Assembly: GCA_963784355.1 (NCBI GenBank)
Contig: CAWAQU010000010.1
Location: 1 to 64,000, forward strand
Length of the DNA: 64,000 bases
Direction: 5' to 3'
Source: an uncultured bacterium
Lineage (GTDB): Bacteria > Patescibacteriota > JACMRA01
Position 1 is the stretch's first letter. Each line of letters opens with the position of its first letter. Position numbers and translations under genes: made by a program. Under the pieces are notes generated by a model. It saw only the letters and a program-made list of their open reading frames with translations. It was not told the DNA's origin and made no database searches. Shown piece after piece: positions 25,398 to 52,533 of the stretch.

Positions 25398-25473
25398 GGA
25401 CCTGTAGCTCAGTCGGTAGAGCAATGGCCTTTTAAGCCAGTGGTCGTGGGTTCGATCCCCACCGGGTCCACCA
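25398..25473 (+). tRNA. tRNA-Lys(TTT)
   Basis: GGACCTG/CGGGTCC acceptor stem, anticodon loop CTTTTAA, GTTCGAT T-loop, encoded CCA. Confidence 0.96.
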
Positions 25474-25592: not shown

Positions 25593-25669
25593 GGGCCTTT
25601 AGCTCATTTGGCTAGAGCGCTTCCATGGCATGGAAGAGGCGAGGGGTTCAAATCCCCTAAGGTCCACCA
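25593..25669 (+). tRNA. tRNA-Ala(GGC), prophage integration target
   Basis: GGGCCTT/AAGGTCC with G3:U70; anticodon arm CTTCC-ATGGCAT-GGAAG; GTTCAAA T-loop; CCA. Confidence 0.96.
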
Positions 25670-27171
25670 TAATAATTTTTAGTAGTAAATATAGCCTCTA
25701 AGCCTAGATAAATACTGGACTTTTCGGGTGTTCTAAAACCTGAGTTTGGATCATATACGATATCTCCTGAAAAATTGGTTTTTACGATCAATCTTTTAGT
25801 CGCTAAATCTCCATTATGCCAGTTATCTACTACATTTAAGACATCCTCTAGAAACTTTTTTAGTGGTGTTCTAAAATTTTTCTTGCTAGGTGAATTTAAT
25901 TGTAATTTTATTGTTGTAATCTTTTCTTCAAGAGTTGCTTTTTGAATTTGCAATTCAGTTAATTTATTTTCAAAAGCTTTAAATAAAATATTATTCTCAA
26001 TATTAATTGATTTATCAACTGTATTTGATATTTGTTTATTAATCCCAACTAATTTAGCTTTTGCCTCCTGCTGATCATTCTGGAGGTTTTTTATATTTGC
26101 ATTAATATAGTTCTCAAATATTTTTTCATAGGCTTTTATAATAGATTCTGAGGGCTTATTATTTTCCAATAATTTTATGAATTCATGCTCGAGCTTTTCA
26201 CGGGCAATCATTTTAGAATAATTAACGCATTCTTTATTTGCACAATAATAATATGGGAATTTTTTGTTTGATTTAGATTTTGCAAATGACGCCGTGAAAA
26301 ATTTATTACACTCCGAACATTTAACAATCCTTCTTAATGGAAATTCTTGATTTAAATCTTTAGTGTAGGTTTTTGTTTCCATATTGATTCGACTTAAAAT
26401 TTTGTTGTGGGTTTCAAGGGTTATAATTGGTTCATGTATTGCTTTTGTCAAAGGAATTTTCCAAACAGGAAAATCAAAATAACCAGCATAAATAGGTTTT
26501 TTGATAGCTTCATAAAATCTTTTTACATCAAAATCAAATCCTTTGGATTTAATAAATTCAAATGCTTCAATTCTTGAATGAAAACTACCATTAGCGTAAC
26601 CCTCAAAAGCTTTTTTGAGATGTGTGGCTAGTGGCTCGTCTCGAACAATTGTTTTAGATTTATCAAGTTTCTTCATCGTATAGCCAAGCGGAGGTTTGAG
26701 AATCCAGCGGCCGGCATATAAACAAGCTTCCATGTTATTTCTGACTTTCGTTTCGTTTTCCAACCTATGGTACTGATCTTGCACTGCAGTTATACCAGAA
26801 ACTAAAAACTTTACGTTACTTGATTCTATTGAATTCAAATCAACAGTGACATAATCCGTCATTATATCATATGAGTCAAAAATCTTAGTGTAGCTAAAAA
26901 AGTCTCCAGCATCTCTAAATAGTCTGCTTTGAGAATAGGCTAAAATATAAAAGGGCTCTTTAGCTCGTTTTAAAAATGACATCATTTCTTTGAACGCTGG
27001 TCTGTCAGCATCTTTCGCAGACACACCTGGCTCTTTATAAATTTGGACTATCTCATACCCTCTTCTTACAGCAAGTTGCAGGCACATCAGTTCTTGACTT
27101 TCAATTCCATTGCCCTCTTCGACTTGTCTTTTAGAAGAAACTCTACAGTAAATTACTGCTTTTTTTGTCAT
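25657..27171 (-). CDS. Large serine recombinase (phage integrase)
   Basis: YCRVSS catalytic Ser, SRLFR, recombinase domain PPLGY, zinc ribbon CSEC..YYYCANKEC, coiled coil; stop codon lies inside tRNA-Ala. Confidence 0.95.
   Translation of the reverse strand: MTKKAVIYCRVSSKRQVEEGNGIESQELMCLQLAVRRGYEIVQIYKEPGVSAKDADRPAFKEMMSFLKRAKEPFYILAYSQSRLFRDAGDFFSYTKIFDSYDIMTDYVTVDLNSIESSNVKFLVSGITAVQDQYHRLENETKVRNNMEACLYAGRWILKPPLGYTMKKLDKSKTIVRDEPLATHLKKAFEGYANGSFHSRIEAFEFIKSKGFDFDVKRFYEAIKKPIYAGYFDFPVWKIPLTKAIHEPIITLETHNKILSRINMETKTYTKDLNQEFPLRRIVKCSECNKFFTASFAKSKSNKKFPYYYCANKECVNYSKMIAREKLEHEFIKLLENNKPSESIIKAYEKIFENYINANIKNLQNDQQEAKAKLVGINKQISNTVDKSINIENNILFKAFENKLTELQIQKATLEEKITTIKLQLNSPSKKNFRTPLKKFLEDVLNVVDNWHNGDLATKRLIVKTNFSGDIVYDPNSGFRTPEKSSIYLGLEAIFTTKNYYGGP
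25662..25670 (+). repeat. attL core GTCCACCAT
   Basis: 3' end of tRNA-Ala, repeated at 63778-63786. Confidence 0.75.
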
Positions 27172-27263
27172 GTCCTGAGCTAAGCAAAATTATAGTTTTT
27201 TAGCAAATATGCCACAAAAAAACAAGGAGAGTGTATCATCCTTGCGTATAGAAGAAAACTAGC

Positions 27264-27398
27264 CTATGCCGTTTTAAAAGGCGGGTCGAATGGCTTACAC
27301 TTTTTGTGTTGCAAGCCATTTGTACCAATCATTACGTTTTTATCACTTGCGTTGACTAGGACGTTGCAGATAGGGCAATATCTTTTCTTCTTAGCCAT
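27264..27398 (-). CDS. 44-aa zinc-ribbon-like peptide upstream of the integrase
   Basis: Manual translation: MAKKKRYCPICNVLVNASDKNVMIGTNGLQHKKCKPFDPPFKTA (CxxC...HxxC). Confidence 0.45.
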   Translation of the reverse strand: MAKKKRYCPICNVLVNASDKNVMIGTNGLQHKKCKPFDPPFKTA

Positions 27399-27473
27399 GT
27401 TAACTCCTTTTGTATAGAAATTGGCTTACCTTTATTTAAAGCATAATATTTTGGTATTGGCAAACTTTAGAAG

Positions 27474-27818
27474 TTAGTCTAATTGTGGTAAGCTTCCAAT
27501 CATACTCATAGCAGTCTTATATTTATGCTTTAATTTCTGATCTGCATTAATTGCTAGCAAATCTACTTCGTTTAAACTCCTAAGATTTTTATATGGTGCT
27601 TCAGAATCAGACTCTATGTTTGGTTGTTTATAAGTTTGATTTTCATAGACTAATCCTTCTCGAAAATTCTGAGGGTCAGTTATTCCATTCCAGAAAGCTT
27701 TTGCGATATAAAGCGTGATTAAAGTAAGTGTAAATTCTAGAGTGTAATTAATTCGATCAGAAATATAATACATTAAGATTAGTGTGAGTATGTTGATTAT
27801 GTGTTTAAATTTTGGCAT
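27474..27818 (-). CDS. Hypothetical phage membrane protein
   Basis: Two N-terminal hydrophobic segments; in the leftward early operon. Confidence 0.55.
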   Translation of the reverse strand: MPKFKHIINILTLILMYYISDRINYTLEFTLTLITLYIAKAFWNGITDPQNFREGLVYENQTYKQPNIESDSEAPYKNLRSLNEVDLLAINADQKLKHKYKTAMSMIGSLPQLD

Positions 27819-28099
27819 AAGTTTTTGTTTATATTTTAGTACCCCCTATTGTAGTTTTTTCCCGTCCTGACCCCCCCCGGGGGGAGGGGGTGGGGGGGGT
27901 AAATGTTGTGTTTTAGTGAGCAGGGGAGGGGACTAGAAACTGTAGTCAATAATATAGTTGTATATATTATCGTTTTGTAAGTCTCTTAATGCATCTCTCA
28001 TTGCTTTGATTTCCAATTTGTGTATTTTATTGTAGTATTTGTTTTTGTTAAATTTGGTCATATTGTTTGGTTGTTTTGGTTTATAATACTTTTTTGATT

Positions 28100-28429
28100 T
28101 TAAATTATTCCTGTTTTTTTAATCTGTTGAAGTTGGTCCTCAGTAATTTGTAAGTTAATTCTTCTCGGTTGCCCCTCTATTTTTTTAACGCAATAATGAG
28201 GCAATGAGATATCTTCTATTCCGTAGCAGAGGCCCATCATAGTATCGGCTACCCATTCAATAATATAGACTTTGCCTATCATGTGCTGGATTCTTTCTGG
28301 CCACTCTTGAAAATCGCCGACTTCAAAAGTACTTTCTTGCACTTCTACATAGTCGCCGACTGCGTACTTCTCGGGTTTTCTAAATGGGTTGTAAGTTTCT
28401 TGTTCGTTCTGTAGTTTTGCTTTTCGCAT
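28100..28429 (-). CDS. Hypothetical phage protein (SH3-like barrel)
   Basis: KYAVGDYVEV..MIGKVYIIE pattern typical of small phage beta-barrel proteins. Confidence 0.6.
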   Translation of the reverse strand: MRKAKLQNEQETYNPFRKPEKYAVGDYVEVQESTFEVGDFQEWPERIQHMIGKVYIIEWVADTMMGLCYGIEDISLPHYCVKKIEGQPRRINLQITEDQLQQIKKTGII

Positions 28430-28438
28430 ATGGTTTAT

Positions 28439-28750
28439 TTATTGAGTTTGTAAAACAAAATTTGGTTGATAGCCTTTTAATTTTTTGCTTTTAAATTTTC
28501 CATCTTTACCTTGAATTACATTTTTATCATCTAAATATGTTTTGTAATTACTTATTCCTAACTCCTGAGCACGTTTATATATGTAGTCTTGAGTGGCAAA
28601 TAAGTCTTTTGATCGATACTCTTTTATTTTTCTATTCAAAATTTTATATTTAAAATCTAAAAAATAAGTCTGTAAGTTTTTGGAAAATTGAAAAGTTAAA
28701 ATTGTGAGTGCGGTTGCAATTAAAAATGTTGCAATAATTATTGTAGTCAT
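28439..28750 (-). CDS. Hypothetical phage protein with N-terminal TM
   Basis: ORF track; operon context. Confidence 0.55.
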   Translation of the reverse strand: MTTIIIATFLIATALTILTFQFSKNLQTYFLDFKYKILNRKIKEYRSKDLFATQDYIYKRAQELGISNYKTYLDDKNVIQGKDGKFKSKKLKGYQPNFVLQTQ

Positions 28751-28956
28751 GTGTTTATTTTTGTTTAAATTTGTGGAAATTTTACGGTGCCTTTACGGTC
28801 GGCCAAATTTGATTGTTTTGGAAAGTACGGTGTTTGTACGGTTATTTAATTAATTTTGTGAGTTGCTGTTTAATTTGTTTGGCTTGAGATTTATTTGATA
28901 AATTTATACAAAGCTCAAGCTCTTTAATCTGATCCTTATTCATAATGTAATTTTTG

Positions 28957-29187
28957 TTAGATTATATTTCTTTTAATTAAAAGCCACTCACAAACCGAAA
29001 TATCGGTCAGTAAGCCGGCTTTATAGTTCTTTTCGATACCATATTCAAGACATCTTGCTGGTATCCAGATGTCGACAATTGGTGGTTCTAAACACTCAAC
29101 TCTGAGGGCCTTTTCTCTGACATCTTTAATTATTACTTGTAGGAGGTGAAACTCTCCTGAAGACCCTGTTAAAAAGTTGTTGCTGGT
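28957..29187 (-). CDS. Start-less ORF in the -1 frame immediately after the Sak4-like gene
   Basis: Manual translation: ..LLQVIIKDVREKALRVECLEPPIVDIWIPARCLEYGIEKNYKAGLLTDISVCEWLLIKRNII*; no ATG/GTG/TTG in frame. Confidence 0.55.
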   Translation of the reverse strand, partial: TSNNFLTGSSGEFHLLQVIIKDVREKALRVECLEPPIVDIWIPARCLEYGIEKNYKAGLLTDISVCEWLLIKRNII

Positions 29188-30137
29188 TTATGATCGTCCA
29201 TTAAAGCTGGATCAATAAGTTCGGTTTCGATTTTAGGTTCAGTTTTTGAATCTTTATTTGATTTAATAGCGTTCTCTAACATCTCACAAACTTGGTCGTA
29301 AACCTTCATTGGCATGACTTTGTGAGAATCAAAATGAAAGGTTTCTTTGATTTTTACTATTACTTCATCTTTATCTCGTTTTAATACTGAGCAATACTCA
29401 TCAAGTAGAGCAAAGTATCTTTTTTTCTGGTCTTCGGTTGGCAAAATTGGTTGTTTGTCTTCTTTAACACCTGTGTCAGTAACTGGATCACTGCTATTTA
29501 ACCAATTTAATATTTGTTGGCCTGTCTCTTTTACTATAGTAAAGTCTTTTCCATCAAATAGGCTTGTTCTGTCTTTAGGAGCAGTTGCTAAGTGTTTCTG
29601 ATTAATTTCAAATACAATTGTAAATTCATAATCTAAACCATCTCTTTGTATACTTGCCATTCCAACTTTGGTTGGCACTTGCTTACCATTTTTTTCTTCT
29701 AAAACATAATCTTGTTTTGATCTTGTTGTTGCAATAATATGAACAGGACTGCTGATTATCTTATTAACGAATTTATCATGACGAGGTGTTAGCTTAGCCC
29801 AATTTGTGAATGAGTTGCCCATCATCTTGTTGCTAAGGTTGATGATTTCTTGCCACTCATGACTTATTGAGTCGATTATCAGTACTTCATAGCCTGCTTT
29901 TTCTGCTTCTTCGATAGCTTCAATATAATCTTCGGGAGTATGAGAAGTTAGGTTTAGTGTATCAAAGTTAAATTTGTCTGAGTATAGTGAAGCTGACCCT
30001 TTTTCAGTATCAATTAAGGCGATCTTGTCACTGATAGCTGAGGCTAATGTTAAAGCACTGTAAGTTTTTCCGGATCCTGAAGCCCCTTGTAATAGCAGTC
30101 TTAGTTTGAGTTGTTTTTTGGTTGCTTTTTGAAACAT
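29169..30137 (-). CDS. Sak4-like AAA_24 ATPase (ssDNA-annealing recombinase)
   Basis: MFQKATKKQLKLRL, Walker A GASGSGKT, IDTE, IIDSISHEW, YEFT, KDRT. Confidence 0.88.
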   Translation of the reverse strand: MFQKATKKQLKLRLLLQGASGSGKTYSALTLASAISDKIALIDTEKGSASLYSDKFNFDTLNLTSHTPEDYIEAIEEAEKAGYEVLIIDSISHEWQEIINLSNKMMGNSFTNWAKLTPRHDKFVNKIISSPVHIIATTRSKQDYVLEEKNGKQVPTKVGMASIQRDGLDYEFTIVFEINQKHLATAPKDRTSLFDGKDFTIVKETGQQILNWLNSSDPVTDTGVKEDKQPILPTEDQKKRYFALLDEYCSVLKRDKDEVIVKIKETFHFDSHKVMPMKVYDQVCEMLENAIKSNKDSKTEPKIETELIDPALMDDHKPATTF

Positions 30138-30257
30138 AATTTAGTTCGTAGTTATTTTAATAAAGTATCGATGCTAGATGATTTGATTTGCTCAAGTCTA
30201 GCTTGTAGTTGGATATGATTCATATTTGTATTTGTTTTTGGTTTAAAATAATTTGAT

Positions 30258-30497
30258 TTAATTTGAGTGACGTTCTTTATATAGTTCCTTAGCCTCGCCT
30301 GATTGAATTTTGTCTATTACAATACTGGCTTGCTCTGAAGTGATTCTAGTATAATCTAGATATCCTCCACCCATTAAAATGGTTGCTACTAAGAAATCTA
30401 TAAATCCCTCTTGATGAATTTTACCGGCATACAAGCTTCGTAGTTTCTTGTGGACTAGAAATCGTATGTAGCCGCATTGCTTTTCAGTAATAGTCAT
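30258..30497 (-). CDS. Hypothetical phage protein
   Basis: TEKQ..YI..L and T..QAS..ID pattern common in small phage proteins. Confidence 0.6.
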   Translation of the reverse strand: MTITEKQCGYIRFLVHKKLRSLYAGKIHQEGFIDFLVATILMGGGYLDYTRITSEQASIVIDKIQSGEAKELYKERHSN

Positions 30498-30590
30498 ACT
30501 TAGCTGAAATTTGCTTTTATATATTCAAGCGCTGCAGCTTCTCCTCTTGCTGTCAGGATTGCATCTGCTAGTTTATCTTCGTAATTCATA

Positions 30591-30881
30591 TTATCTGTAT
30601 TCTATTACTCCACTTGAAATAGCTCCGGCGGTTTCAGCTTTAACTTGAATTGTGTTTATTGCTTGGTAACCTAAGAATAAGTTGAATCCTATTAATATAG
30701 TGCTGATGAATAATTTAGGCATCCAGTTGTCTTGTCGGGTTATTCCTTTCGTATTAGATGGTAAATATACATCTACCTCTTTACCGTTGAAAATAACTTT
30801 GCTCGTTGTGTTATACTCATTATCTGAGACTTTAGATAATTCTGAGTTTGACAAAGTGATGTCAATTGTGTTGTTATACAT
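30591..30881 (-). CDS. Hypothetical phage membrane protein, first gene of the leftward operon
   Basis: ORF track; C-terminal TM. Confidence 0.55.
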   Translation of the reverse strand: MYNNTIDITLSNSELSKVSDNEYNTTSKVIFNGKEVDVYLPSNTKGITRQDNWMPKLFISTILIGFNLFLGYQAINTIQVKAETAGAISSGVIEYR

Positions 30882-31285
30882 ATGTTAAAGTAAGGGAATT
30901 TACTTTAACGCATAGACCCTCGTTTGCTCGGGGGTTTTTTCTATGCGAAAAAGTTTTAAACTACATTGTTTTTTTTCTTACATACCAGCGTCGCAGCAGG
31001 CTAGAATAAATTGCCCGAGGGTGTCCCTCTAATTTGTAAGCCGTCTGTAAAACTTAATTAATTTCTTAATTCTATTTAATTATAGAGAAGTTTTTAAACT
31101 ATGTCAAGTAAAATTTGCTTGAACTAAATAAAACAAGCAATAAAGCTAAATTACTACATCACTTCCCCACCAAATACCCTTGATAATTGACAAGAGGGAG
31201 GATACTAAGTAGATATGTATTTGTCGTGTTTCTATTAGTCTAGAATTGATGTTTGACATTTAGCTGAAAGTAAGTATTCATAATT

Positions 31286-32311
31286 ATGATGATATATCCT
31301 CGAAGTAAAAAATTGGTCTTTTGTAATAATAAGGGTGGTGTGGGTAAAACAACACTTGCATTTAATGCTGCTGTAGCTTTTGCGAAGCTTGGCTACAAGA
31401 CTGTATTGGTTGATCTTGATCCACAAACCAATTTATCTAAACTTGTTTTAGGTGAATCTTTTTACGAACAAGATCTGTTTGGTGAGGATAAACCAAATAT
31501 TAGCACTGCACTTAAAGGGATAGTTGATGGTATAAGTGATGTAGATTATAACGTTGAGTTTGTTCCATCGCCTACACAAGAAAATTTATCTATTTTACCG
31601 GGTAGTTTGTATCTTTCAGTATTTGAAGACACTTTGATTAACGCCTTCGGTGAAGCAGCTCGAGGTATTACCAGAGGTTACACACTCACAAGTGCTATAG
31701 ATAGGTTTCTAAATTATAAGGGGGAGAAAGAAAAGATCGATCTCTTTATTATTGATACGTCTCCAACTTTAGGATTATTGAATAGAATAATTTTGTTAGG
31801 ATCTGATTATTTTGTTGTACCAGTATTTCCAGACAGATTTAGTGTTCAGGGAATAGAAAACCTTGGTGAAGTATTTAAAAAGTGGAAAGATGAGTGGGTT
31901 AATACAGCTAGAGCTTTAGCAAAAACGAAACCAGTCGAAAGTCGTTATGTTTTACAAGGTGAGGGCTTGTTTATCGGGTACATTATAAACTCATATAATG
32001 TTTATGGTAAAAAACCAATTAAAGAACATACCGATTGGATGAGTGTTGTACCAGATAGAGTTAAGAAATTTTTATCGGAAAATCATAGTAGAAATGGGCT
32101 TGTCGAAAGGAGTTGGAAAAAACCTATTCAGATTATTCAAGATTATGGCCAGCTAGCTTCCATTTCACAGAAGAGAATGCGTGGTATTTTCGATGTGGAG
32201 CCGAAAGACCTTAAAACATTTAAACAAGGTACCAGAGAAAACCTTGAAAAGGCCAAAAACGAATTTGAAAGTTTAGGTCATAATATTCTAGAAATATTAT
32301 CTAAATATTAA
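31286..32311 (+). CDS. Orphan ParA/Soj-family ATPase
   Basis: Deviant Walker A NNKGGVGKTT, VDLDPQ.N, IDTSP, SDYFVVPV. Confidence 0.9.
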   Translation: MMIYPRSKKLVFCNNKGGVGKTTLAFNAAVAFAKLGYKTVLVDLDPQTNLSKLVLGESFYEQDLFGEDKPNISTALKGIVDGISDVDYNVEFVPSPTQENLSILPGSLYLSVFEDTLINAFGEAARGITRGYTLTSAIDRFLNYKGEKEKIDLFIIDTSPTLGLLNRIILLGSDYFVVPVFPDRFSVQGIENLGEVFKKWKDEWVNTARALAKTKPVESRYVLQGEGLFIGYIINSYNVYGKKPIKEHTDWMSVVPDRVKKFLSENHSRNGLVERSWKKPIQIIQDYGQLASISQKRMRGIFDVEPKDLKTFKQGTRENLEKAKNEFESLGHNILEILSKY

Positions 32312-32320
32312 AATAGTAGT

Positions 32321-32554
32321 ATGTTAGAAGTAAACGAGATTAAAATAGATAGGAATAATAAAGCCGTAATAAAATACGAACAAGCCTTTGAAAAAGGGTT
32401 ACAAAGTTTAAGTGAAGAACAAAGACAAAAATTTTATAGTAAGCTTTCCACTCCCGATATTAATAGTAAACCATTATTAAAAGCGCTTAAAAAAGATAAA
32501 AATGTGGTCCATAGAATGATCAAAAATATAATCAGAAGCCTACACTTAAGCTAA
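32321..32554 (+). CDS. Small hypothetical protein co-transcribed with ParA
   Basis: 9 bp downstream of the ParA gene, same strand. Confidence 0.55.
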   Translation: MLEVNEIKIDRNNKAVIKYEQAFEKGLQSLSEEQRQKFYSKLSTPDINSKPLLKALKKDKNVVHRMIKNIIRSLHLS

Positions 32555-32584
32555 TCAAAAAACAATCTTTGGCGTTAGCCACGA

Positions 32585-32612
32585 CCCCTAGGAAACTAGG
32601 GGGTAATTTTTT
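32585..32612 (+). terminator. Intrinsic terminator between convergent genes
   Basis: CCCCTAG-GAAA-CTAGGGG followed by a T-run. Confidence 0.7.
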
Positions 32613-32687
32613 GCCTTTTTCCAAAATCTAGTTGGCATCTTTTTAAACTTGTAAACTAACTTTAGAGATAGTGTCTATCTTGTCAAC

Positions 32688-33869
32688 CTATATAGCCTTG
32701 CAAATCACCCAAGAATGACACCGAGTAGAATCATGCTTGAGTATATCTAAACCAACATTGGCTCGTCTTAAATTCTCAATTAGGCCAATGTCATCAATTA
32801 GATAGTGTTGCCAGATTGAAATTCTCTCACCTTTTTTGAGTTCAATTGTTTTTATCTGATCATATATCTTGAGTTTAATCTCATAATCTTTATCTAAGAC
32901 CAAGTACTTAAACCTAGCGTCACTTTCCGGGTTGTATTCGATAACATTCTCACAATCGCTTACATCAATCCCCAGCATGCTTAATATGAGTGTATGTCGG
33001 AAATCTGCATTTTCATTTTTTACGTAGCCAAAAGTAGCTCTGTTCTTTGGTTCTGTGTTTGTAAAAGAAAAGCAAAGTCTGTCCTGCTTTTCCATACCTT
33101 TTCTTAAATTCTGAAGTACCCTAAAATAGTCTTTATGATTGCAAATAGTGTGGCCAAGATATAGAATTATGTTTATTTCATCGGCTTTAGCATTTAAATA
33201 AAAAAGTTTCGTAAAATTTGACTCATCAATATCAGTTTCAAAAGACCTGACTGTAATATCTGGGAACCAATTTTCAATGTTGCTAGTTGCTATCTGGTTG
33301 ATATTTAGGCTAATATCAATGGCATTATAACTATTTAGGCTAAAATTCTTATAAATGTATTCTAATAAAGGTCTGACAGGGTAGCCATTACCCGGTCCAA
33401 GATCAAAAATATTTATTTTAGTACCTTTATCTAAATCCAAAGTAAGATCTTGTAATGATGATATTATAAAGTTGTTATTTATAGGCACGTGTTGGCTTAC
33501 TCCGCTTTTATAATACTCATCCCAAGCTTTGGCCCCACCATCTTTGTAACTAAATTTAAACTGCACCTCATGGCTAAAAGTAAGGTCATTATATATCTCA
33601 GCAACTTCTTCATCATTAAAATTATGATAAAATTCCTTGCTTGGTTCCATCTTTTTTAATACCACACTGGATCTGTACTTTCTACCCTCTTCATATAGCC
33701 TTGCAAGTTCTGCTTTATTATGTTCATTAGCTAAAACTCGATATTTTCCTTTCGACTCTGTAAGTTGTAAATTATTTTTCTTAGTAATAGCATCTTTCAA
33801 CCATTTATTAACTGTGGCACTTCCTACGGAATAATCTTTAGTTATATCACTATTTCTAAAATAAGACAT
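32688..33869 (-). CDS. N-terminal HTH-like domain fused to an EgtD-like (Methyltransf_33) SAM-dependent methyltransferase
   Basis: YSVGSATVNKWL (HTH-like); KFSY..GAKAWDE; FDLGPGNG; AIDIS; YLGHTICN. Confidence 0.75.
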   Translation of the reverse strand: MSYFRNSDITKDYSVGSATVNKWLKDAITKKNNLQLTESKGKYRVLANEHNKAELARLYEEGRKYRSSVVLKKMEPSKEFYHNFNDEEVAEIYNDLTFSHEVQFKFSYKDGGAKAWDEYYKSGVSQHVPINNNFIISSLQDLTLDLDKGTKINIFDLGPGNGYPVRPLLEYIYKNFSLNSYNAIDISLNINQIATSNIENWFPDITVRSFETDIDESNFTKLFYLNAKADEINIILYLGHTICNHKDYFRVLQNLRKGMEKQDRLCFSFTNTEPKNRATFGYVKNENADFRHTLILSMLGIDVSDCENVIEYNPESDARFKYLVLDKDYEIKLKIYDQIKTIELKKGERISIWQHYLIDDIGLIENLRRANVGLDILKHDSTRCHSWVICKAI

Positions 33870-33945
33870 ATGATGTTTAGCTTGACAATGTCGATAGAAT
33901 TTTGTATATCATCTTAGTTTCAATTTTACTACAATTTTTGATTTT

Positions 33946-34152
33946 ATGGAAGAGTATAAAAAAAATATAGCTTTATTTTCTGTTTTAGAACTGCTAGTTC
34001 CCATTTTAAAAGATGATCCAGAGTTAAATGCAAAAGTTATTCATAGGTGCAGAATAACAAATGTAAACAAATATGTTGTTTTGATTAATGTACTGGAGTT
34101 TATTCAGACAAGTCGATATAATCCATCCAGTCTTGAAACCAGCCAGTTCTAA
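33946..34152 (+). CDS. Small hypothetical protein
   Basis: ORF with a TTGACA promoter-like element at ~33881. Confidence 0.4.
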   Translation: MEEYKKNIALFSVLELLVPILKDDPELNAKVIHRCRITNVNKYVVLINVLEFIQTSRYNPSSLETSQF

Positions 34153-34609
34153 TAAATTTTGCAAAGCCTCTAACTTTTTGATCTATAGGCTGAGCTTTAA
34201 GATGTGCTACCTGAGTAGGGTATGCGACAATGTATTTTCTACCATCAATTTTCTCTGTACCCATCAGTCCATTGTCTTCCATAAACCCAACAGCGTCAAA
34301 ACCCTGTTTCAAGTTTACGATTTCTTCCAAATAAAGCTGCCCATTTTTATTTCTAAGCCAGTCCAATTTTTTATATGAGTCTATTGTATTCCTTGAAAGA
34401 TACCCTTTCAAAATTTCAGCCGCTCTGTAAACAGTAATGAGTTTCCAGTCTTTGGGTATAACTGGATAGTTTTTCTTCATTGATAGGCTAAAAGCCTGTA
34501 CCACTTTTCTTGTTTGATCCATCTCAGTTTTAGTTAGTGACCATAAAGAGCAAAGTTTATCAAAGCACTCCTTGCTGGTCTTAATTTTTTTCTCTATTAA
34601 AAGAATCAT
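34100..34609 (-). CDS. Protein with excisionase/MerR-type HTH; candidate non-canonical repressor
   Basis: LITVYRAAEILKGYLSRNTIDSYKKLDWL; divergent from the rightward lytic operon. Confidence 0.55.
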   Translation of the reverse strand: MILLIEKKIKTSKECFDKLCSLWSLTKTEMDQTRKVVQAFSLSMKKNYPVIPKDWKLITVYRAAEILKGYLSRNTIDSYKKLDWLRNKNGQLYLEEIVNLKQGFDAVGFMEDNGLMGTEKIDGRKYIVAYPTQVAHLKAQPIDQKVRGFAKFIRTGWFQDWMDYIDLSE

Positions 34610-34619
34610 ATATTTTTGA

Positions 34620-34760
34620 TTATGTCAATTATATTTTGGATGAACTAATATGGAAAAAAGCCACATTTGAACGTATGCAGTTAGACTAATACAAGAGTAT
34701 TAAACTGTCAACCAAATCTTGCTTGACATAAGATAAAAATTATTTTATACATACAACTAA
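34620..34760. promoter_or_regulatory. Back-to-back divergent sigma70-type promoters (lysis/lysogeny switch region)
   Basis: TGTCAA-N11-TTGACA at 34706-34728, with TTGACA followed by a TATACA-like -10 element. Confidence 0.55.
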
Positions 34761-34770
34761 CTACGAAGTT

Positions 34771-34989
34771 ATGTATAGCGACCCACAAGAAATTTTAGAT
34801 ATCTTAAAAGTAGATCGCCCAAATCTTACTTTGGATGATGTCATTCAGATTATTGTTTACGGTGAAACTACGGCAAAAAGAGTATGCGATGATTACGATC
34901 GGGAAGTAACAGAAAAAGAAACAAAACAAAACGCTAAATCTACCAAACTCCAAAAGCAACATGAATTAGTCAAGGCAACAATGAGCTAA
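34771..34989 (+). CDS. Small protein in the Cro position
   Basis: First rightward gene after the divergent promoters. Confidence 0.55.
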   Translation: MYSDPQEILDILKVDRPNLTLDDVIQIIVYGETTAKRVCDDYDREVTEKETKQNAKSTKLQKQHELVKATMS

Positions 34990-35021
34990 GCTAGAACACA
35001 ACTGCTTTTGTAATCAAAAAC

Positions 35022-35415
35022 CATAGACTGCTGCCCTAAAGCCGAAACGCATAGGTGCGGTTTTCTGTGTCTACATTTTGAAGATTGATAGCTGAGTAGG
35101 GTGGTGGCATCCTACTCAGCTACGAGTCTTTAAGACTCAAGATTGAAGGTTAGAAGAAGCGGTGGCGGACAGTGAGCCGTACAGCAAATATCTAGTGTGC
35201 TATCGAGTTAAAACCGAAAAGGTCTCCGCATCTAGTTGGCGATACCTAAGATATTATCTGGCTATACCCAGCAGTCGAACAAATGCTACGCCTAGATCAT
35301 GCAAGTCAAACCTTGCTCGCTTCTTCCAGCCTTTTTTCGCAAAAGGGAGGTTTGGATTGTTTTGTTGCATGAATAGATGAGATCAATATGATGGCTCATA
35401 GGGTCTCATCTATTC
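35022..35415 (+). ncRNA. Putative structured non-coding RNA cluster
   Basis: Six adjacent stems including 15-bp and 14-bp hairpins and a 184-nt domain closed by a 14-bp helix; G-U wobbles favour the + strand. Confidence 0.6.
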
Positions 35416-35604
35416 TGAAGCTTCAATTAATATAATTTTTATGCTTAAGTACGACGCTGAAATAAAACACATGATCTGGGAATTATCTCAAGAATATCCA
35501 CGTAAGTACATATCAACTCTTTTAAATATTCCATACTCAAGTTGCTGCAAAATAATCCAAGAGCAAGAGGTTTATAGCAATAAATACAATCCACTTTTTT
35601 AATT

Positions 35605-36606
35605 ATGCAATATAATTTTGACATCAATCAAAAAGCAATAGTCGAACTAAGCAAAACGACTGGTGTCAAACTTGGTTTACAAGAAGCTGTAATAATAGAT
35701 TTTATTGCAAAATTTGCACATAGCGGGGAGTGTGAGGTAATTATAATTGAAGGCAAAGTATACTACTGGTTAGCTTATAGTAAAATAATAGAAGAGTGTC
35801 CACTTTTGGGAATCAAAAATAAAGAAGTCCTGGCCCGTAAAATTGAATTACTAGAAAATGCAGGAATATTATTAAAACATTATGAGGCGGGTAAAGTTAG
35901 AAAAACTTATTTTGCTTTCGGTCCAAACTATAAACATATAGTATTTGATTATAAGAAGAATAAACAAGATGTAGGGGGTACCATGCCGACTGAAAAGTCG
36001 AGTCTAGATGAGGCCATGCCGACTGAAAAGTCGAGTACCATGCCGACTGAAAAGTCGAACTATCATAATACCATTGATCATACTTCTACTCCTGAAAATT
36101 TTGATGTTGAAAATACCGAAGCACATATAAAACAAATTACAAGGTTAGCTTTAGACATAAAGATGCCTTACTACCCTCAAATTTGCAAAAATAACCCACT
36201 TTTAACTGATACTGATATTTCCAATATTTGTATGAAGGTTGTTTTATCAAATCCAAATGAGGGGCCAAATGCTTTAATGAAAAAAGTATTGAGTTGGTCC
36301 AGAACCGAAGCCAAATCAGAACCAAGAACTTTTGGCCCAAAGAAAAAGGAGATTTTTGAAGCGTACTGGGATGATTACAATTCAAGAGAAGAGTTAGAGC
36401 AGGCTATTTCCAAGGCTATAAGTGAGGGTAAGGAAGTTAAAAGATATATGATACCAGTGAATGCTCTTAAAAAATGGGGTGAGGAAACTAGTGATCTAGC
36501 TAAAACTTTGGCTACTAAACTTAGTACCAAGCCAGATATTAATCAAGGAAACAGAGAAGAGGACAACCGTAAAAATGAATTAGAAAAACAACTTAAACAA
36601 CTATAA
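35605..36606 (+). CDS. Phage replication initiator (N-terminal wHTH, internal iterons)
   Basis: INQKAI..L..AVIIDFI..GKVYYWLAYSKI..P.L motif; triple MPTEKS repeat. Confidence 0.8.
   Translation: MQYNFDINQKAIVELSKTTGVKLGLQEAVIIDFIAKFAHSGECEVIIIEGKVYYWLAYSKIIEECPLLGIKNKEVLARKIELLENAGILLKHYEAGKVRKTYFAFGPNYKHIVFDYKKNKQDVGGTMPTEKSSLDEAMPTEKSSTMPTEKSNYHNTIDHTSTPENFDVENTEAHIKQITRLALDIKMPYYPQICKNNPLLTDTDISNICMKVVLSNPNEGPNALMKKVLSWSRTEAKSEPRTFGPKKKEIFEAYWDDYNSREELEQAISKAISEGKEVKRYMIPVNALKKWGEETSDLAKTLATKLSTKPDINQGNREEDNRKNELEKQLKQL
35981..36058. repeat. Replication-origin iterons: 3x CCATGCCGACTGAAAAGTCGA
   Basis: Exact 21-mers at 35981, 36014 and 36038, each with dyad CGACT-N4-AGTCG, followed by AT-rich DNA. 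Confidence 0.85.
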
Positions 36607-36608
36607 TT

Positions 36609-36848
36609 ATGAATCCATATTTACAACTACTCAAAAAGCGGATTGATGAAAATTTCAACGCTGAAAAACTAATTGCAAATGAGTATATTTTAGAAGCTTT
36701 AAAAGTCGAAAGATATACACTTCAGAAACTTTTGAAGGACTTCAAGGAAATTGAGAGGGAGGCTGAGTCAAATTTAGTAAAGCCTGTTGAGGAAGCTGAG
36801 GTTAGAGAGCGTGTAGTAGAAGATATGGAGCCCCGATTACCATTTTAA
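36609..36848 (+). CDS. Hypothetical phage protein
   Basis: ORF ending in acidic residues plus LPF, like an SSB tail. Confidence 0.6.
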   Translation: MNPYLQLLKKRIDENFNAEKLIANEYILEALKVERYTLQKLLKDFKEIEREAESNLVKPVEEAEVRERVVEDMEPRLPF

Positions 36849-37038
36849 CACTTTATTATGGTTACTTATATTTTATACAAGCTAATAGTCACTTCTACAG
36901 ACAAAAATCCTAAAGAGTGGAGTGTGATACAAAAAATTTGCATTGTAACTTATTTATTCATTGCAATGGTAGCGGATTTTGAGTTAGTGGCAATGGTCTT
37001 TTTTGTACTCAAAGCTTTTAGAATAATCCCTTAATTTT

Positions 37039-37416
37039 ATGCTTATTCAATCCACTTACCCAAATTTCGACTACACCAAACTAAAACGTACAAAAGAAGT
37101 CGAAACGGTTTATAAAGATTATTTAGTTGATATAAATCGAATGTATGGCCTTAGCCCTGAAGAAATGGTTTTAAGGAGTGAGTTTTCACACCCTCATCAG
37201 CAAATAGCAATTTCAAAAAACAAGTTTCCTTATTTACTACCTGACAATCAACAACACTGGCTACTTTGGTCCAAAAAAAAGCTTACTAAATCAGAAATAA
37301 AGAAGATTTTAAATACCTATTTTAATGGTAAAAAGATTGTAGCAATTTGGGTAAACAACCCTAAAGACCAATCAGTGAAAAACTTATTCCACGTTCATTT
37401 TATAATAGAAGATTAA
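37039..37416 (+). CDS. DUF3605/GIG1-like (HIT-like) protein
   Basis: NKFPY..P....HWLLWS and WVN.P..QSV..LFHVHF motifs. Confidence 0.7.
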   Translation: MLIQSTYPNFDYTKLKRTKEVETVYKDYLVDINRMYGLSPEEMVLRSEFSHPHQQIAISKNKFPYLLPDNQQHWLLWSKKKLTKSEIKKILNTYFNGKKIVAIWVNNPKDQSVKNLFHVHFIIED

Positions 37417-37417
37417 T

Positions 37418-37657
37418 ATGTTTAAAAAACTATTCAACAAACTAATACCTAAGTGGAGACACAAATACTATTTTGTATATATTTATGAAAAAAAATATGG
37501 CAATGGGATGCAAATTCAAGGTGCGGATTATGACTTTCCTAATATTTTAAAACCCAATGACATATCTGATCTATATAAACAAATACAATTGGAAAAATTA
37601 ACTAATAACTTGGTTATACTGAATATTATAAAATTAGAATCTGAATTGTATTTTTAG
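37418..37657 (+). CDS. Hypothetical phage protein
   Basis: ORF track; tightly packed operon. Confidence 0.55.
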   Translation: MFKKLFNKLIPKWRHKYYFVYIYEKKYGNGMQIQGADYDFPNILKPNDISDLYKQIQLEKLTNNLVILNIIKLESELYF

Positions 37658-37658
37658 T

Positions 37659-38093
37659 ATGCTTAAAATACCCACTTTGATTTTACCATTACCGCCAACC
37701 GATAACAGGCGACTCATGCCATATATTATTGGCCGAGGACCTCGGTTATTACCTACTTCGGAATTTAATGCCTGGAAAGTAAAAGCAAATATGGTTTGGC
37801 AAGCCTATAAACTCCAATGTTACAAAGATGGAATCCAGCTTGAATTAGTAGAGCCTAGCTTAAGTATGCAGTATATCTACAAATACAAACTTTTTAAAAA
37901 AGATGACCGAACTGATGATCAAAATTTTGAGAAGGCATTAAAAGATTTTCTGGAGGGTAGAGTATATAAAGATGATAGGCATGTACGTCTTGAGTTAGTT
38001 GGTTTGGTAGAAATTGACAAAGTAAACCCTAGGATAGAGTTTGACTTGGTTCCCCACATTTTATCAATGAAAAAACAAATTGAAGTCAATTAA
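37659..38093 (+). CDS. RusA-like Holliday junction resolvase
   Basis: LPLPPTDN, DDQNFEKALKDFL, YKDDRHV, NPRIE. Confidence 0.8.
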   Translation: MLKIPTLILPLPPTDNRRLMPYIIGRGPRLLPTSEFNAWKVKANMVWQAYKLQCYKDGIQLELVEPSLSMQYIYKYKLFKKDDRTDDQNFEKALKDFLEGRVYKDDRHVRLELVGLVEIDKVNPRIEFDLVPHILSMKKQIEVN

Positions 38094-38107
38094 AACAAAT
38101 TTAGCTT

Positions 38108-39676
38108 ATGGATGAAAAAATGTTACCGCGAATGAAAATTACTATAAATAAAATGGTAGAAAAAAAGGTTATTTTAGCCCATACAATGGAAGAATTACAG
38201 GAAAAAATAGATGAGTTTGTAACCTGTCCGTTTAATGATGTTGAGCTTTGTATAGCGTGTGGCGGCGGCGGCACTTTGTATACTGCAATGATATTTTATA
38301 AAAACACAAGAATGAATTAAATTATGTTTAGAGAATTTATAAATCAATATTTACTGGAGCCATTTGTCAGGCCAGAAATTAAGAAAATAGCACTAACAAT
38401 TTTAGAAAAAGGTGAAATAAATCTTTTTCGTACAGGCTATTTTTATAATAGTTATAGATTAGGTAGGGACTTTTTTGATTTTAATCTAACTCATAAGCAC
38501 TATTTAATAAAACTGAATCCTTTTGAAGAAATGTGGGCTGGTCATTTAATAATAACTAAAATTAGGGAAAGAGAATTAGAAGAGGAAAGAAAAATATTTG
38601 AAGAAGCGGTTAAAGAAATTGAAAGTTAAATTATATTATTATGTTTTCAGAAATAATTTCAAAAATCGTACTCACACAGTTCTTTTTAGGTTTTTCTTCA
38701 CTACTACTTGTAAGACTTATTGATGATCCACTTACTAATTATGGAAAAATACATGACACCGACTTTTTAACTTATTTATTATATTTTTTCGCTTTTATAT
38801 GGACTTCTCTTATTTTCACCATTCCATTATTAATTTTTAGCATCAATTGGTAATTAAAAAAATATGCCTCAAAGATCACTACTAAACCATTTAAAATCTG
38901 TTAGCTTGTTTAAACCAAAAAGTATAAATGTAGAAGAAAAAGTCATGGATATGACCGCTGAGTTGTGGAACTACTATGTCAAAAATCTTGAGCAGCAACA
39001 CCCATCTGAATTTACAGATTTAGCTGATGCAATTCATCAAATACAAGCTTTAATTGCTTTGAGGATTGCTAGAAAATATCACCCTGAAATATTTTCAATT
39101 AAAAAATAAGTTATGTCAGAAATTAAAAAACCACAACCAAAGGATAATTATACATTAAATGAAGTTTTAGAAGTTGCTGAAATTCTATTGAGGGCATCGA
39201 CGATTGAAATTGATGGAACGGACAAACAGAAACTAATCATCGGTGGATCTTTGCAAGCAATATATAATCATTTAGCAGAAAAATATCCTAAAGTAGAGAA
39301 AGTTACACACATATCCGAAATGGAAAGATTGGGTATAAGATTTGAAAGTGGGATAATGCCTCCGTTGGAAATTAAAAAACCACGGGAATATACAATTGAT
39401 GAAATAGTCCAGATTTGGAAAGAGGAAAAAGTTGTATATGTTGTTACACGATTAGGTAAACATAAATCTATAGATCGTGAACATGAGGGGGATTTTCATC
39501 TATATAATTTTATAAATAAAACAGGTAATGAAGAATTACTCAGAAAAGCTCTAAGCACTCATAAAACACCACTATATAGGTCAAAACTAACTACTGAAGA
39601 GTATGAAATTTGGGGTGAAAAGAATAAAGACAACCCTGATCTAACAGAAGCCCACATAAATCAAGTACTCTATTAA
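38108..39676 (+). CDS. Five small hypothetical phage genes (38108-38320, 38324-38629, 38641-38853 membrane, 38864-39109, 39113-39676)
   Basis: Tightly packed ORFs on the same strand. Confidence 0.6.
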
Positions 39677-39681
39677 ATTAT

Positions 39682-40920
39682 ATGAAATATATCCAACTTT
39701 CCGAATTAACACTTTTAGAGAATAACCCCAGACAAATTTCTGACGAAAATTTTGATAGATTAAAAAAGTCTTTATCAAGAGATCCAAAGTTTTTAGAACT
39801 CAGACCTATTTTAGTTTATGTAGAGGGTGAGAAGTTAATTATTTATGCTGGCAATCAAAGATTCAAAGCTGCTCAGGAATTAGGCTGGGAGGAAATACCA
39901 GTTATTATTGATGAAAAAGCTGAGTTGGAAACAATCAGACAAAGAATTTTACTTGATAATGTAGAGTTTGGAGAATGGGATAAAGATATTTTAATCAATA
40001 ATTGGGATATAGGAGAGCTGTATGATTTAGATTTACCCGAGCTAAATGATATTATAGAAGAGGTAAAAACTGAAAACTTACCAAATTTTGAAGGCCAAGA
40101 TGAGGTACCTGAGCTTAATAAAAGACCTATTGTAATGTATGGAGATATATTTGAGATTAAAGCTCGGGGTTGCAAATATAGGATTGGTTGTTTAGATAGC
40201 ACCAGTATTTATGATGTTGAAAAGTTGTTGAATGGGGCTAAAATAGATTTAGTTTTAACTGATCCACCTTATGGGGTAGATATTACTAAGGCAAAAAGAA
40301 AATCAACTGCTGGAGTTTTAGGAAAATTGCCAGAGATTGCAGGTGATACAGACACGGAAGCTGCAAGAGACTTTTATAATACATGTCAAAGCTTAGGAAT
40401 TAAAAATTATATTATTTGGGGTGGGAATTATTTCACTGATTTTTTACCACCAAGTCGTTGCTGGATAGTCTGGGATAAAGTAGTGCCTCATGATTTTAGT
40501 TTTGCAAAAGGGGAACTTGCTTGGGTTTCAATGGATAAAAATTTAATGATTTACAAACAAAACTGGAGTGGAAATATAAATGGCAAAATAGATTTAAATG
40601 TAGAGGGATTGGATAAAGAAACCATTAATGGTTCAAGTAGGGTCAATAGAGTTCATCCAACTCAGAAGCCAGTGGGCCTACAATTGGATATTATAAAAGA
40701 TTTTGATGATGGATTTAATAATATATTTGATGGATTTTCTGGAGGGGGAACTACATTATTAACTGGAATCCAAACCAAAAAGAATGTTTATGCCAGTGAA
40801 ATTACTGAATATTATGCTCAGGTTTCAGTAAAAAGATGTGTGGATTTTTTAAATAAAAACAATATTGACTTTGAAATTACTTTAAACAGTGAGGCTTTTG
40901 ATATTAAAATATTAGATTAG
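39682..40920 (+). CDS. ParB/Srx N-terminal domain fused to an N6/N4 DNA methyltransferase
   Basis: NNPRQI, AGNQR; LTDPPYG, HPTQKP, DGFSGGGTT. Confidence 0.9.
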   Translation: MKYIQLSELTLLENNPRQISDENFDRLKKSLSRDPKFLELRPILVYVEGEKLIIYAGNQRFKAAQELGWEEIPVIIDEKAELETIRQRILLDNVEFGEWDKDILINNWDIGELYDLDLPELNDIIEEVKTENLPNFEGQDEVPELNKRPIVMYGDIFEIKARGCKYRIGCLDSTSIYDVEKLLNGAKIDLVLTDPPYGVDITKAKRKSTAGVLGKLPEIAGDTDTEAARDFYNTCQSLGIKNYIIWGGNYFTDFLPPSRCWIVWDKVVPHDFSFAKGELAWVSMDKNLMIYKQNWSGNINGKIDLNVEGLDKETINGSSRVNRVHPTQKPVGLQLDIIKDFDDGFNNIFDGFSGGGTTLLTGIQTKKNVYASEITEYYAQVSVKRCVDFLNKNNIDFEITLNSEAFDIKILD

Positions 40921-40922
40921 TT

Positions 40923-41435
40923 ATGGCAAAAAAAATTGATTGGATTAAATTAAAACAAGAATTTCTTGCAGGAGATATTGAAGACGTATCTGAGTTTTGT
41001 AAAAAGCAAGGACTAAGCAAGCCTGAGGCAAGTGGATCTGTAGGCAAAGCGACCAAAGGTTGGAAGGAAGAGAGGAACTCGCTTAAGCAAACGGCCCTAG
41101 AAGCGGCTAAATCAAAACACATTGAGCAAAGTATCCTGCCGAATGAAAAACTCCTTAAAATGAAGGAAAACATCCTTATAATCGTGGGGAATAAAATCGC
41201 AAAGGAACAAGATAAAATGTCGGCCGCTGATCTAAAAAGTTTAATTCAAATTATTAAAACAGAACTTGGTGAGCCTATTACTATTAATGTAAATAGAAAC
41301 CTAGACCAGAGCTTAGACAAAAACGGTAATCCTACCGATCCAAATAGTTTTACTTTTATAGATATCACAAATTTAACCCCTGAAGAAAGAAAAAGAATAA
41401 TAGCACAAAATAAGAATGCAGGTAGCAATAACTAA
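40923..41435 (+). CDS. Terminase small subunit (putative)
   Basis: Overlaps terL; N-terminal KIDW..K.EF HTH-like region, KGWKEER. Confidence 0.7.
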   Translation: MAKKIDWIKLKQEFLAGDIEDVSEFCKKQGLSKPEASGSVGKATKGWKEERNSLKQTALEAAKSKHIEQSILPNEKLLKMKENILIIVGNKIAKEQDKMSAADLKSLIQIIKTELGEPITINVNRNLDQSLDKNGNPTDPNSFTFIDITNLTPEERKRIIAQNKNAGSNN

Positions 41436-42834: not shown

Positions 42835-42841
42835 TTTTTCT

Positions 42842-43132
42842 ATGCAAAAAAACCAAATCAAACTACCACTTACCAATCTTGAGGTCACTATGCTTATAAG
42901 CATAAATCAAGGCTGGTCCTCAAATGAAGCTCTATCACAAATCTGCGGCATGTCCAACGGTTACATAACTGAAAAAATAGATAGGCTAGAAAACCTTAAA
43001 TTAGTTGCAAGGGAGGGTGGAGGTAGAGCTACAACATATATTTTGACTAATGAAGGTCAGAAAATCGTCAATGATGTGGTCTATTTAGCAAATATAGCAT
43101 TTTTAGAAATGCAAAGAAATATGAGTAATTAG
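42842..43132 (+). CDS. MarR-like winged-helix transcription regulator (candidate late regulator)
   Basis: LS..CGMSNGYITEKIDRLENLKLV.R..YILTNEGQK. Confidence 0.75.
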   Translation: MQKNQIKLPLTNLEVTMLISINQGWSSNEALSQICGMSNGYITEKIDRLENLKLVAREGGGRATTYILTNEGQKIVNDVVYLANIAFLEMQRNMSN

Positions 43133-43136
43133 AAAA

Positions 43137-43178
43137 TTTGGTTTGGTGTTTGCAAAAGCAAGCAGCAGGAAATAAGAT
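43137..43178 (+). promoter_or_regulatory. Late promoter motif, copy 1 (33-bp element plus TAAGAT -10)
   Basis: 29/33 identical to 50154-50186, with the same spacing to a -10 hexamer. Confidence 0.7.
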
Positions 43179-43201
43179 TGTAGCATAAATCAAACTTATT
43201 T

Positions 43202-43540: not shown

Positions 43541-43544
43541 CTTT

Positions 43545-44285: not shown

Positions 44286-44296
44286 ATTAAATCAAT

Positions 44297-44602: not shown

Positions 44603-44607
44603 ATTTT

Positions 44608-45816: not shown

Positions 45817-45832
45817 CGCATTATATTTAAAT

Positions 45833-47521: not shown

Positions 47522-47522
47522 T

Positions 47523-47807: not shown

Positions 47808-47820
47808 ATAAAATTAAGAT

Positions 47821-49212: not shown

Positions 49213-49223
49213 AAAAAGGGTTT

Positions 49224-50195: not shown

Positions 50196-50219
50196 ATATA
50201 TGATTAATCAAGAAAATAT

Positions 50220-51260: not shown

Positions 51261-51277
51261 CACTATTTATATATTAT

Positions 51278-52528: not shown

Positions 52529-52533
52529 TATTT

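Follow-up and report, generated by a model that had tools for sequence, protein, structure and literature searches.

Serine integrases are leading tools for inserting large pieces of DNA, and their one-way action is normally reversed by a separate recombination directionality factor (RDF). What follows when the gene of such an enzyme runs across its own phage attachment site (attP), such that integration would rewrite the end of the enzyme itself? This question is raised by int, a gene encoding 504 amino acids (aa) at 25657..27171 on the minus strand of the first 64,000 nucleotides of contig CAWAQU010000010.1 (the whole of this stretch being referred to hereafter as the window), from an uncultured bacterium of the Patescibacteriota. 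Our reading, to which we assign a probability of roughly three in four, is that a large serine recombinase (LSR) inserted a 38.1-kb prophage at the 3' end of a tRNA-Ala(GGC) gene, that int crosses attP, and that Int has 521 aa in the free phage and 504 aa in the prophage.

The integrase and the two proposed prophage ends

The product of 25657..27171 is an LSR. It contains a resolvase domain (PF00239, E=1.1e-17, residues 5-154) and a recombinase zinc ribbon (PF13408, 25.5 bits against a cut-off of 25.3), and it matches the PHROG integrase family phrog_95 (E=2e-59); PF07508 was not reported for Int in the domain search. Residues R10, S12, R83 and R86, as well as the zinc-ribbon cysteines C285, C288, C310 and C315, are invariant in an alignment with 30 aligned homologues (A1). 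The AlphaFold2 (AF2) model, with a mean predicted local distance difference test (pLDDT) score of 85.6, comprises a catalytic domain, a long helix E, a recombinase domain, a zinc ribbon with an embedded coiled coil at 342-425 (helices 342-388 and 394-425), and a small C-terminal helical part. The last helix of the model spans residues 486-493, and residues 497-504 have a pLDDT <50, which suggests that the C-terminal end is probably disordered and that any exchange of terminal residues falls after the folded part of the protein. When the model was compared to known structures with Foldseek, the top matches were full-length LSR-DNA complexes of the SPbeta type, Bxb1, phiC31 and LI (E of 5.1e-18 for 9y66_A, 3.5e-17 for Bxb1 9iu2_A, 2.3e-14 for phiC31 9rah_B and 1.6e-11 for LI 4kis_C), with TM-scores of 0.2-0.44 that are low as expected for flexible multi-domain chains. 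Sequence identity of Int to these solved structures is 10-27%, and a structure match by sequence alone returned two catalytic-domain structures only. Int resembles the integrases of phiC31, Bxb1, A118/LI, SPbeta and TP901-1 in domain order, catalytic motif, zinc ribbon with coiled coil and fold, and shares with them a short core. Unlike these integrases, however, it targets a tRNA gene at the 3' end, and its open reading frame (ORF) crosses its own attP.

At the left end, int converges with the tRNA-Ala(GGC) gene predicted by ARAGORN on the plus strand (25593..25669), which is the host target and the 3' part of which forms the B arm of attL. The int ORF enters this gene by 13 nt on the opposite strand: its TAG stop codon lies opposite the CTA at 25657-25659, within the acceptor stem (3' strand) of the tRNA, and codon 504 (Pro, 25660-25662) precedes it, such that the last residue and the stop of ..TTKNYYGGP both come from the tRNA side. 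The core copy at attL, GTCCACCAT (25662..25670), corresponds to tRNA positions 69-76 plus one base, and the P' arm of attP and attL (25671..25695) lies within the last int codons. The roughly 25-bp extent given to this and the other arms is assumed, serine integrase sites usually being 40-50 bp according to a recent study (10.1101/2025.05.02.651858). As far as the comparison reaches, the tRNA-Ala(GGC) gene appears to belong to the host: the block made up of tRNA-Lys, spacer and tRNA-Ala also occurs in genome G001 of the same genus and in genome G010 of the same family, and G001 has no Int match at E<=1e-30. With the int stop inside this host gene, the host supplies the end of the prophage int irrespective of the exact position of attR.

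On the plus strand of the window, GTCCACCAT occurs three times only, namely at 25662, at 25466 in the 3' end of the neighboring tRNA-Lys(UUU) gene, and at 63778. The last of these copies (63778..63786), about 100 bp past the last phage ORF, would be the core of attR, which sets the prophage body at 25671..63777 (38,116 bp from core start to core start), with a P arm at its right end (63753..63777) and a host-side B' arm beyond the core (63787..63811). When the minus-strand frame ending in ..GG is continued through 63786, it reads 18 aa, LEALILEHLHEHYASYIG, and then a stop at 63724-63722 (tail coding segment 63722..63778). The predicted free-form Int would thus share residues 1-503 with the prophage form and total 503+18 = 521 aa, 17 more than the latter, with a Leu/His-rich tail ending in ..ASYIG. 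Spanning the free-form stop on the same strand is a terminator-like hairpin (63719..63741), a 9-bp stem followed by a T run, which is the only terminator-like site within 63300-64000 (shuffle mean 0.3); RNAfold gives -13.1 kcal/mol for a 95-nt segment containing it. The original prediction had stated that the integrated gene ends in ..NYYGGP with a stop supplied by the tRNA, and that joining the right phage end at the core makes Int 17 aa longer, and both statements are borne out by the ORF and tRNA coordinates and by in-frame reading. It had also placed attP inside the integrase gene, a geometry that holds through the tRNA overlap and the core copy at the right end, attP itself being inferred.

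Together, these features suggest the following course of events. The LSR would insert the phage at the 3' end of tRNA-Ala(GGC), with the crossover within the shared core. In the circular phage, int would be complete (521 aa), with its last 18 residues and the terminator hairpin encoded at the opposite phage end; in the prophage, the 504-aa Int would stop one codon past the core at the antisense-tRNA stop, without its own terminator. Integration would hence exchange the last 18 int codons for one, and the prophage int transcript would read antisense into tRNA-Ala and tRNA-Lys. As all folded domains are retained, both the 521-aa and the 504-aa forms are most likely catalytically competent, to judge from the model.

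The position of the crossover was further evaluated through the symmetry of the rebuilt sites. A dyad centered on the CC at 25664-25665 (core positions 3-4) is the sole top score for attB (10/22), and for attP it scores 11/22, tied with one center outside the core; the crossover is accordingly placed only probably, and by inference, at this CC within the core. In addition, both arms contain a GTTC(T)AAA(A)T element, which starts 16 nt to the left of the core on the tRNA side and 21 nt to the left on the phage side. This offset may recall phiC31, in which the register of the zinc-ribbon domain is shifted by 5 bp between attB and attP (10.1101/2025.05.02.651858). No inverted repeat involving the att arms was detected in 25300-30000, and the P arm with core had no other match of >=62% over 34 nt on either strand of contig C10. 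The core with P' arm had a single inverted match (22/34 at 36112, without the core) and a direct match (25/34 at 11942), such that neither the repeats in 25300-30000 nor the arm matches on contig C10 yielded an inverted second attP copy near int.

We then asked how far the right-hand core can be trusted as attR. The zone from the last phage gene to the first clearly cellular gene (63386-64938) spans 1.55 kb. Past 63786 it contains a membrane ORF of 55 aa and an ORF of 215 aa; an ABC ATPase gene follows, and the contig ends at 66332. In 1000 first-order Markov simulations of 27201-66332, queried with the nine 9-mers covering the tRNA 3' end, a match fell within this zone in 12 cases, which makes 63778 a probable attR; the hairpin and dyad observations agree with this position, and neither served to choose it. 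Several points nevertheless weigh against our reading. The core is only 9 bp, and at least one 9-mer match arose somewhere in the 39 kb in 399 of the 1000 simulations, while the dyad scores are about 2 standard deviations above the estimated chance level and not significant alone. Both attP and attB are reconstructions from sequence: no exact match was found to core plus B' (35 nt) in metagenome_contigs and genome_contigs, nor to P plus core (33 nt) in metagenome_contigs and viral_contigs. The source assembly (13 contigs, 81% complete) contains no second attachment junction, a single 15-mer match on contig C7 being the tRNA arm. Finally, the right flank (2546 bp) yielded weak ABC-gene matches only among 25 relatives and none in G001, and as it lacks synteny to this closest genome, the host nature of 63787-64938 is judged solely from gene content.

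A family of tRNA- and tmRNA-targeting integrases

Among 8000 scored candidate proteins, 434 homologues of Int were detected at E<=1e-10, the nearest only 30-35% identical, and the best 120 of these 434 were analyzed. A G[FLIVM]EP motif is present in the last 90 residues of 86 of the 120, and the longer form M[VA]...G[FLIVM]EP in 62; other homologues with R.EL.TS variants display the same kind of ending. Read by eye, these endings appear to be an antisense translation of the CCA end, acceptor stem and T arm of a tRNA. The inspection of homologue C-termini proposed with the original prediction hence gave 86 of 120 proteins ending in residues read as antisense tRNA.

When 401 genomes of the phylum were searched in six frames, 47 of them, G000 included, gave a match at E<=1e-30, and the best 30 loci were examined. 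At 24 of the 30, the window's own included, a convergent tRNA-type gene adjoins the 3' end of int, and at six it does not. These 24 targets comprise 12 tmRNA genes, six tRNA-Ala(GGC) including that of the window, three tRNA-Ala(UGC), and one each of tRNA-Val, tRNA-Glu and tRNA-Lys, such that an alanine-accepting RNA (tRNA-Ala or tmRNA) is the target in 21/24. A search of viral contigs with the single Int protein returned no close relative; with alignment A1 it returned 32 distant loci, and of the 14 full-length ones examined three adjoin tRNA-Ala(GGC) and one adjoins tRNA-His, while several others have partial tRNA-like ends and no tRNA, as expected of a free attP. On these sequence comparisons, an integrase gene that crosses attP and reads into a tRNA or tmRNA gene from its 3' side is a family trait and not peculiar to this phage, and the overlap of int and attP most likely represents an inherited design that keeps both as one cassette.

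tRNA-Ile(GAU) and tRNA-Ala(UGC) are the usual pair of the rRNA operon spacer. At loci L046 and L050, the targeted tRNA-Ala(UGC) stands after a tRNA-Ile(GAU), and the elements at these loci may lie inside rRNA operons.

The distal ends of 11 relatives were sought in the 19-60 kb on their int side, through exact repeats with one copy anchored at the tRNA end. Four of the 11 had such a repeat of at least 11 bp, namely 16 bp at a distance of 22.3 kb in G018, 14 bp at 27.1 kb in G145, 13 bp at 6.7 kb in G027 and 11 bp at 23.3 kb in G053. The distal core was ambiguous in the remaining seven, with one candidate core among several in G243 (9 bp) and G206 (10 bp), and unanchored or 8-10-bp matches only in G025, G294, G389, G360 and G277. 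In G018, G145 and G053, all at tRNA-Ala(GGC), the core lies on the same ..GGTCCACCA end as in the window, and the int frame runs on past the distal core for 49, 43 and 33 codons, respectively. The three tails share a W-containing motif, e.g., WNSFFDVILDWAPKLKQIYKQ in G053 and WNTFLEYVIEWKPKLEKIYKE in G145, and no motif was seen by eye in the G027 tail. Identity between G053 and G145 is 61% in the body and 48% in the tail (over 21 aligned residues), and between G053 and G018 it is 34% in the body and 47% in the tail (over 15 residues), such that the conservation of these tails is comparable to that of the rest of the protein. In G027 (C2:20551-28709), a single tmRNA gene has two integrase homologues next to it, about 7 kb apart, and cores of 13 bp and 10 bp are repeated there; the locus has the appearance of elements arrayed in tandem at one site.

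Such tails were further compared with a profile built from four homologues with non-tRNA-like ends (P0003, P0039, P0062 and P0104) and scored against 3000 control peptides. The tails of G018 and G053 scored 9.9 and 8.8 bits, values reached by none of the controls, followed by G243 (2.5 bits, 94 controls), G145 (1.5 bits, 191) and G206 (-0.4 bits, 847). The tail of the window scored -1.0 bits, reached by 1376 of the 3000, i.e., like random peptides, and in this test the conserved free-form motif was not present in it. Modelled with AF2, the free-form homologue P0104 has a helical tail (515-538), the pLDDT of which (40-54) is too low to infer docking or mechanism. Residues 480-539 of P0104 matched only themselves in the protein collection, the word index of which is too coarse for short tails.

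The frame in which int meets the core also varies. At 20 of the 24 loci it reads (M/L/V)V(D/E) and onward, and at four, the window, L030, L044 and L046, it reads ..GG, although kinship among loci means that these counts are not independent. That the free-form ORF of the window ends in a hairpin, that 20/24 loci keep one frame and that three relatives keep their tails indicates that selection beyond the core exists in the family, and argues for selection, in some lineages, on the sequence past the crossover.

Known systems provide partial precedents. Mx8 also targets a tRNA gene, and on integration over 100 of its Int residues are replaced, compared to 18 in the Int of the window. The Mx8 and SSV integrases extend across attP, and both are tyrosine recombinases (PMC4383910). 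Mx8 IntP is hence an integrase lying across attP as here, but it is a tyrosine recombinase, whereas fold and motifs mark the enzyme of the window as a serine recombinase. In the "suicidal" archaeal integrases of the SSV type, the recombination site likewise lies within the integrase ORF (PMC7253208); these are tyrosine recombinases whose gene is split in two, whereas Int here keeps 503 of 521 residues. In phage BPs, which has a tyrosine integrase, attP lies in the repressor gene and integration removes a C-terminal degradation tag, thereby acting as a switch (PMC3694055), in agreement with the original prediction, which names integration-dependent C-terminal truncation as a switch for the BPs repressor. 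The analogy to the Int of the window is loose, since BPs rewrites a repressor that loses its tag, whereas here a serine integrase without a recognizable tag is rewritten. An attP within an integrase gene (of the tyrosine type) and a switch through C-terminal rewriting (BPs) are thus both known. For LSRs that target tRNA genes, or whose gene extends across attP, no published account was found in a search that left subscription journals mostly uncovered.

One article holds that only tyrosine integrases use tRNA genes (PMC4383910), a view that the clade described here would correct. A large natural clade targeting 3' ends as universal as those of tRNA-Ala and tmRNA genes would also add nearly ubiquitous landing sites and, if the tail matters, a self-contained way to tie recombination to integration state. 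The gain from the window alone is smaller: the design is seen in use by a full-size tailed prophage, with a variant frame and no conserved tail.

Alternative ends, frames and roles of the tail

The prophage might end elsewhere than proposed, either with attL at tRNA-Lys and a phage-borne tRNA-Ala, or with attR at an AT-rich 10-mer, AATAATTTTT, that is found just right of tRNA-Ala and recurs at 64235. This would be in line with the identical 9-mer at the end of tRNA-Lys and the resemblance of 25482-25498 to the P' arm, but in both G001 and G010 the Lys-spacer-Ala block forms part of the chromosome, eight other relatives (five in genomes and three on viral contigs) adjoin tRNA-Ala(GGC), and even with attR at 64235 the int stop would be supplied by the host. 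The two candidates were rejected: the site at 64235 lies inside the 215-aa ORF, and 10-mers of this AT-rich stretch match the contig at five further positions, while a phage-carried tRNA-Ala is at odds with the conservation of the tRNA-Lys/spacer/tRNA-Ala block; overall, we regard such alternative ends as very improbable. A distinct concern is that the tail is a frame artefact or a recent frameshift through a base gained in the A5 run (at about 25674-25678) that precedes the core. Read in the frame usual for the family, the free form would end immediately past the core, and some 20 residues of antisense tRNA would be added to the prophage form. The spacing from the shared TTK codons to the core is indeed 7 nt in the window and 6 nt in G018, and the other frame is that of 20/24 relatives; however, L030, L044 and L046 are also in the GG frame, L046 ending in ..NGGP exactly as the window does, and the actual frame ends in the hairpin, such that a frame error appears improbable.

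If the 521-aa and 504-aa forms proposed here are real, the question becomes what the exchange of their ends does. It could be a neutral by-product in which attP overlaps dispensable last codons of int and the 18-aa tail is gained and lost without effect, a possibility we hold at somewhat less than even odds. For the window, this would fit a tail that follows a low-confidence, probably disordered end, scores like random peptides, and is read in a frame used by only 4/24 relatives, the stop coming directly after the core at the phage end in the usual frame; it fits less well with a tail ORF ending precisely in a terminator-like hairpin, or with the 20/24 relatives that keep one frame across the core and the three with a conserved tail. 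We consider it unlikely that the exchange sets directionality, i.e., that the free-form tail favors attP x attB or blocks attL x attR and that its loss lets Int excise, with or without an RDF. By analogy, and just as unlikely for the clade at large, the recombination event itself would then set directionality through a cis-acting tail without a separate RDF: the W-containing helix of G018, G053 and G145, or the Leu/His-rich peptide of the window, would license attP x attB by acting near the hinge of zinc ribbon and coiled coil, where the RDF binds in phiC31, until integration removes it and leaves an Int isoform of different directionality or stability, by which the prophage would register its integrated state. 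The conserved tails of these three relatives are consistent with this idea, as are the extreme C-terminus of phiC31 Int at the interface of zinc-ribbon domain and RDF (10.1101/2025.05.02.651858), and an RDF that drives excision when fused to the Int C-terminus (10.1101/2025.05.02.651858; PMC5737554). As stated in the original prediction, no recognizable RDF was found: none of 20 other ORFs, 19 in the non-virion part (27.2-43.5 kb) and a 101-aa ORF at the right end, matched a PHROGs excisionase or RDF family. RDFs of serine integrases are very diverse, however, and for this reason such a result does not show absence. The tail of the window also lacks the family motif, and the low-confidence helix of P0104 is uninformative on docking. 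Moreover, some LSRs act both ways without an RDF, as described for TndX (PMC5704250), such that a missing RDF needs no special explanation. Quite unlikely, too, is a stability switch of the BPs type, with the tail as degron or stabilizer and Int levels that differ before and after integration. In BPs-type phages, integration removes the degradation tag of Rep, and Int is tagged too (PMC3694055). The C-termini ..LLAA and ..PVAA of the free-form homologues P0104 and P0039 resemble the tmRNA tag ends found in relatives (..FVAA and ..APVAA; L028-L052), which hints at a degron on some free-form integrases. By contrast, the ..ASYIG end of the window is unlike those tags and shows no such degron, the rebuilt tails of G018, G053 and G145 have no such endings, and no tmRNA gene was found by ARAGORN in the incomplete assembly for a comparison of tags.

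For the two-form Int favored here, an isoform switch is thus plausible for the relatives with a conserved tail, and less so for this phage. The loss of the putative terminator on integration would be the other change besides the tail swap, and any regulatory effect would be exerted through tail-dependent stability or through the mRNA 3' end and expression, rather than through chemistry. In the lambda sib system, a hairpin lying beyond attP from int forms an RNase III site, and attP is outside the int ORF. Integration would separate a far-side hairpin from the int transcript in both cases, but unlike sib, the hairpin of the window is a putative intrinsic terminator that overlaps the int stop.

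The prophage and its surroundings

The element is a 38.1-kb siphovirus-type prophage in a small-genome bacterium resembling the candidate phyla radiation. Its genes include Sak4-like, ParA-like and ParB-methylase genes, along with those for large terminase, portal, tape measure, Dit and tail fibre; the latter five lie between 41 and 63.4 kb, and the tail fibre gene ends at 63385. The 101-aa ORF (63369..63674, minus strand) encodes a hydrophobic C-terminal stretch and has no PHROG match. In the phage circle, int and its terminator would be followed immediately, on the same strand, by this ORF, which integration would shift to the far end of the prophage.

The tRNA-Lys(UUU) gene (25398..25473, plus strand, ARAGORN), the 3' end of which carries GTCCACCAT at 25466-25474, is a possible secondary or former target, as it ends in the same core. 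The 17 nt right after it (25482-25498) are similar to the P' arm of the phage (25675-25690) and have a counterpart in G010; they may represent a relic of attL or a secondary attB. Between the two tRNA genes, at 25500-25536, lies a 37-nt minihelix resembling tRNA-Ala (GGGCTTT, a hairpin, and ..GGTCCACCA) with a G3:U70-type pair. It is kept in G001 and G010, between which its hairpin stem differs by two double compensatory changes, and it may be a functional tRNA-like RNA, or a displaced 3' end left from an older integration at tRNA-Lys.

The block at 21459-25670, which holds a 539-aa gene, tRNA-Lys and tRNA-Ala, is inverted relative to G001 (C8:24819-28574, L105), and one breakpoint of this inversion is the 3' end of tRNA-Ala, i.e., the attachment site. 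A past recombinase-mediated inversion is possible. Further left of the prophage, at 1-1100 and 12200-20200, large minus-strand coding regions contain long arrays of degenerate direct repeats, for instance a 125-nt unit present 13 times at 33-1081 and an exact repeat of 300 nt with copies at 12204 and 13074, which probably encode repeat-rich surface proteins.

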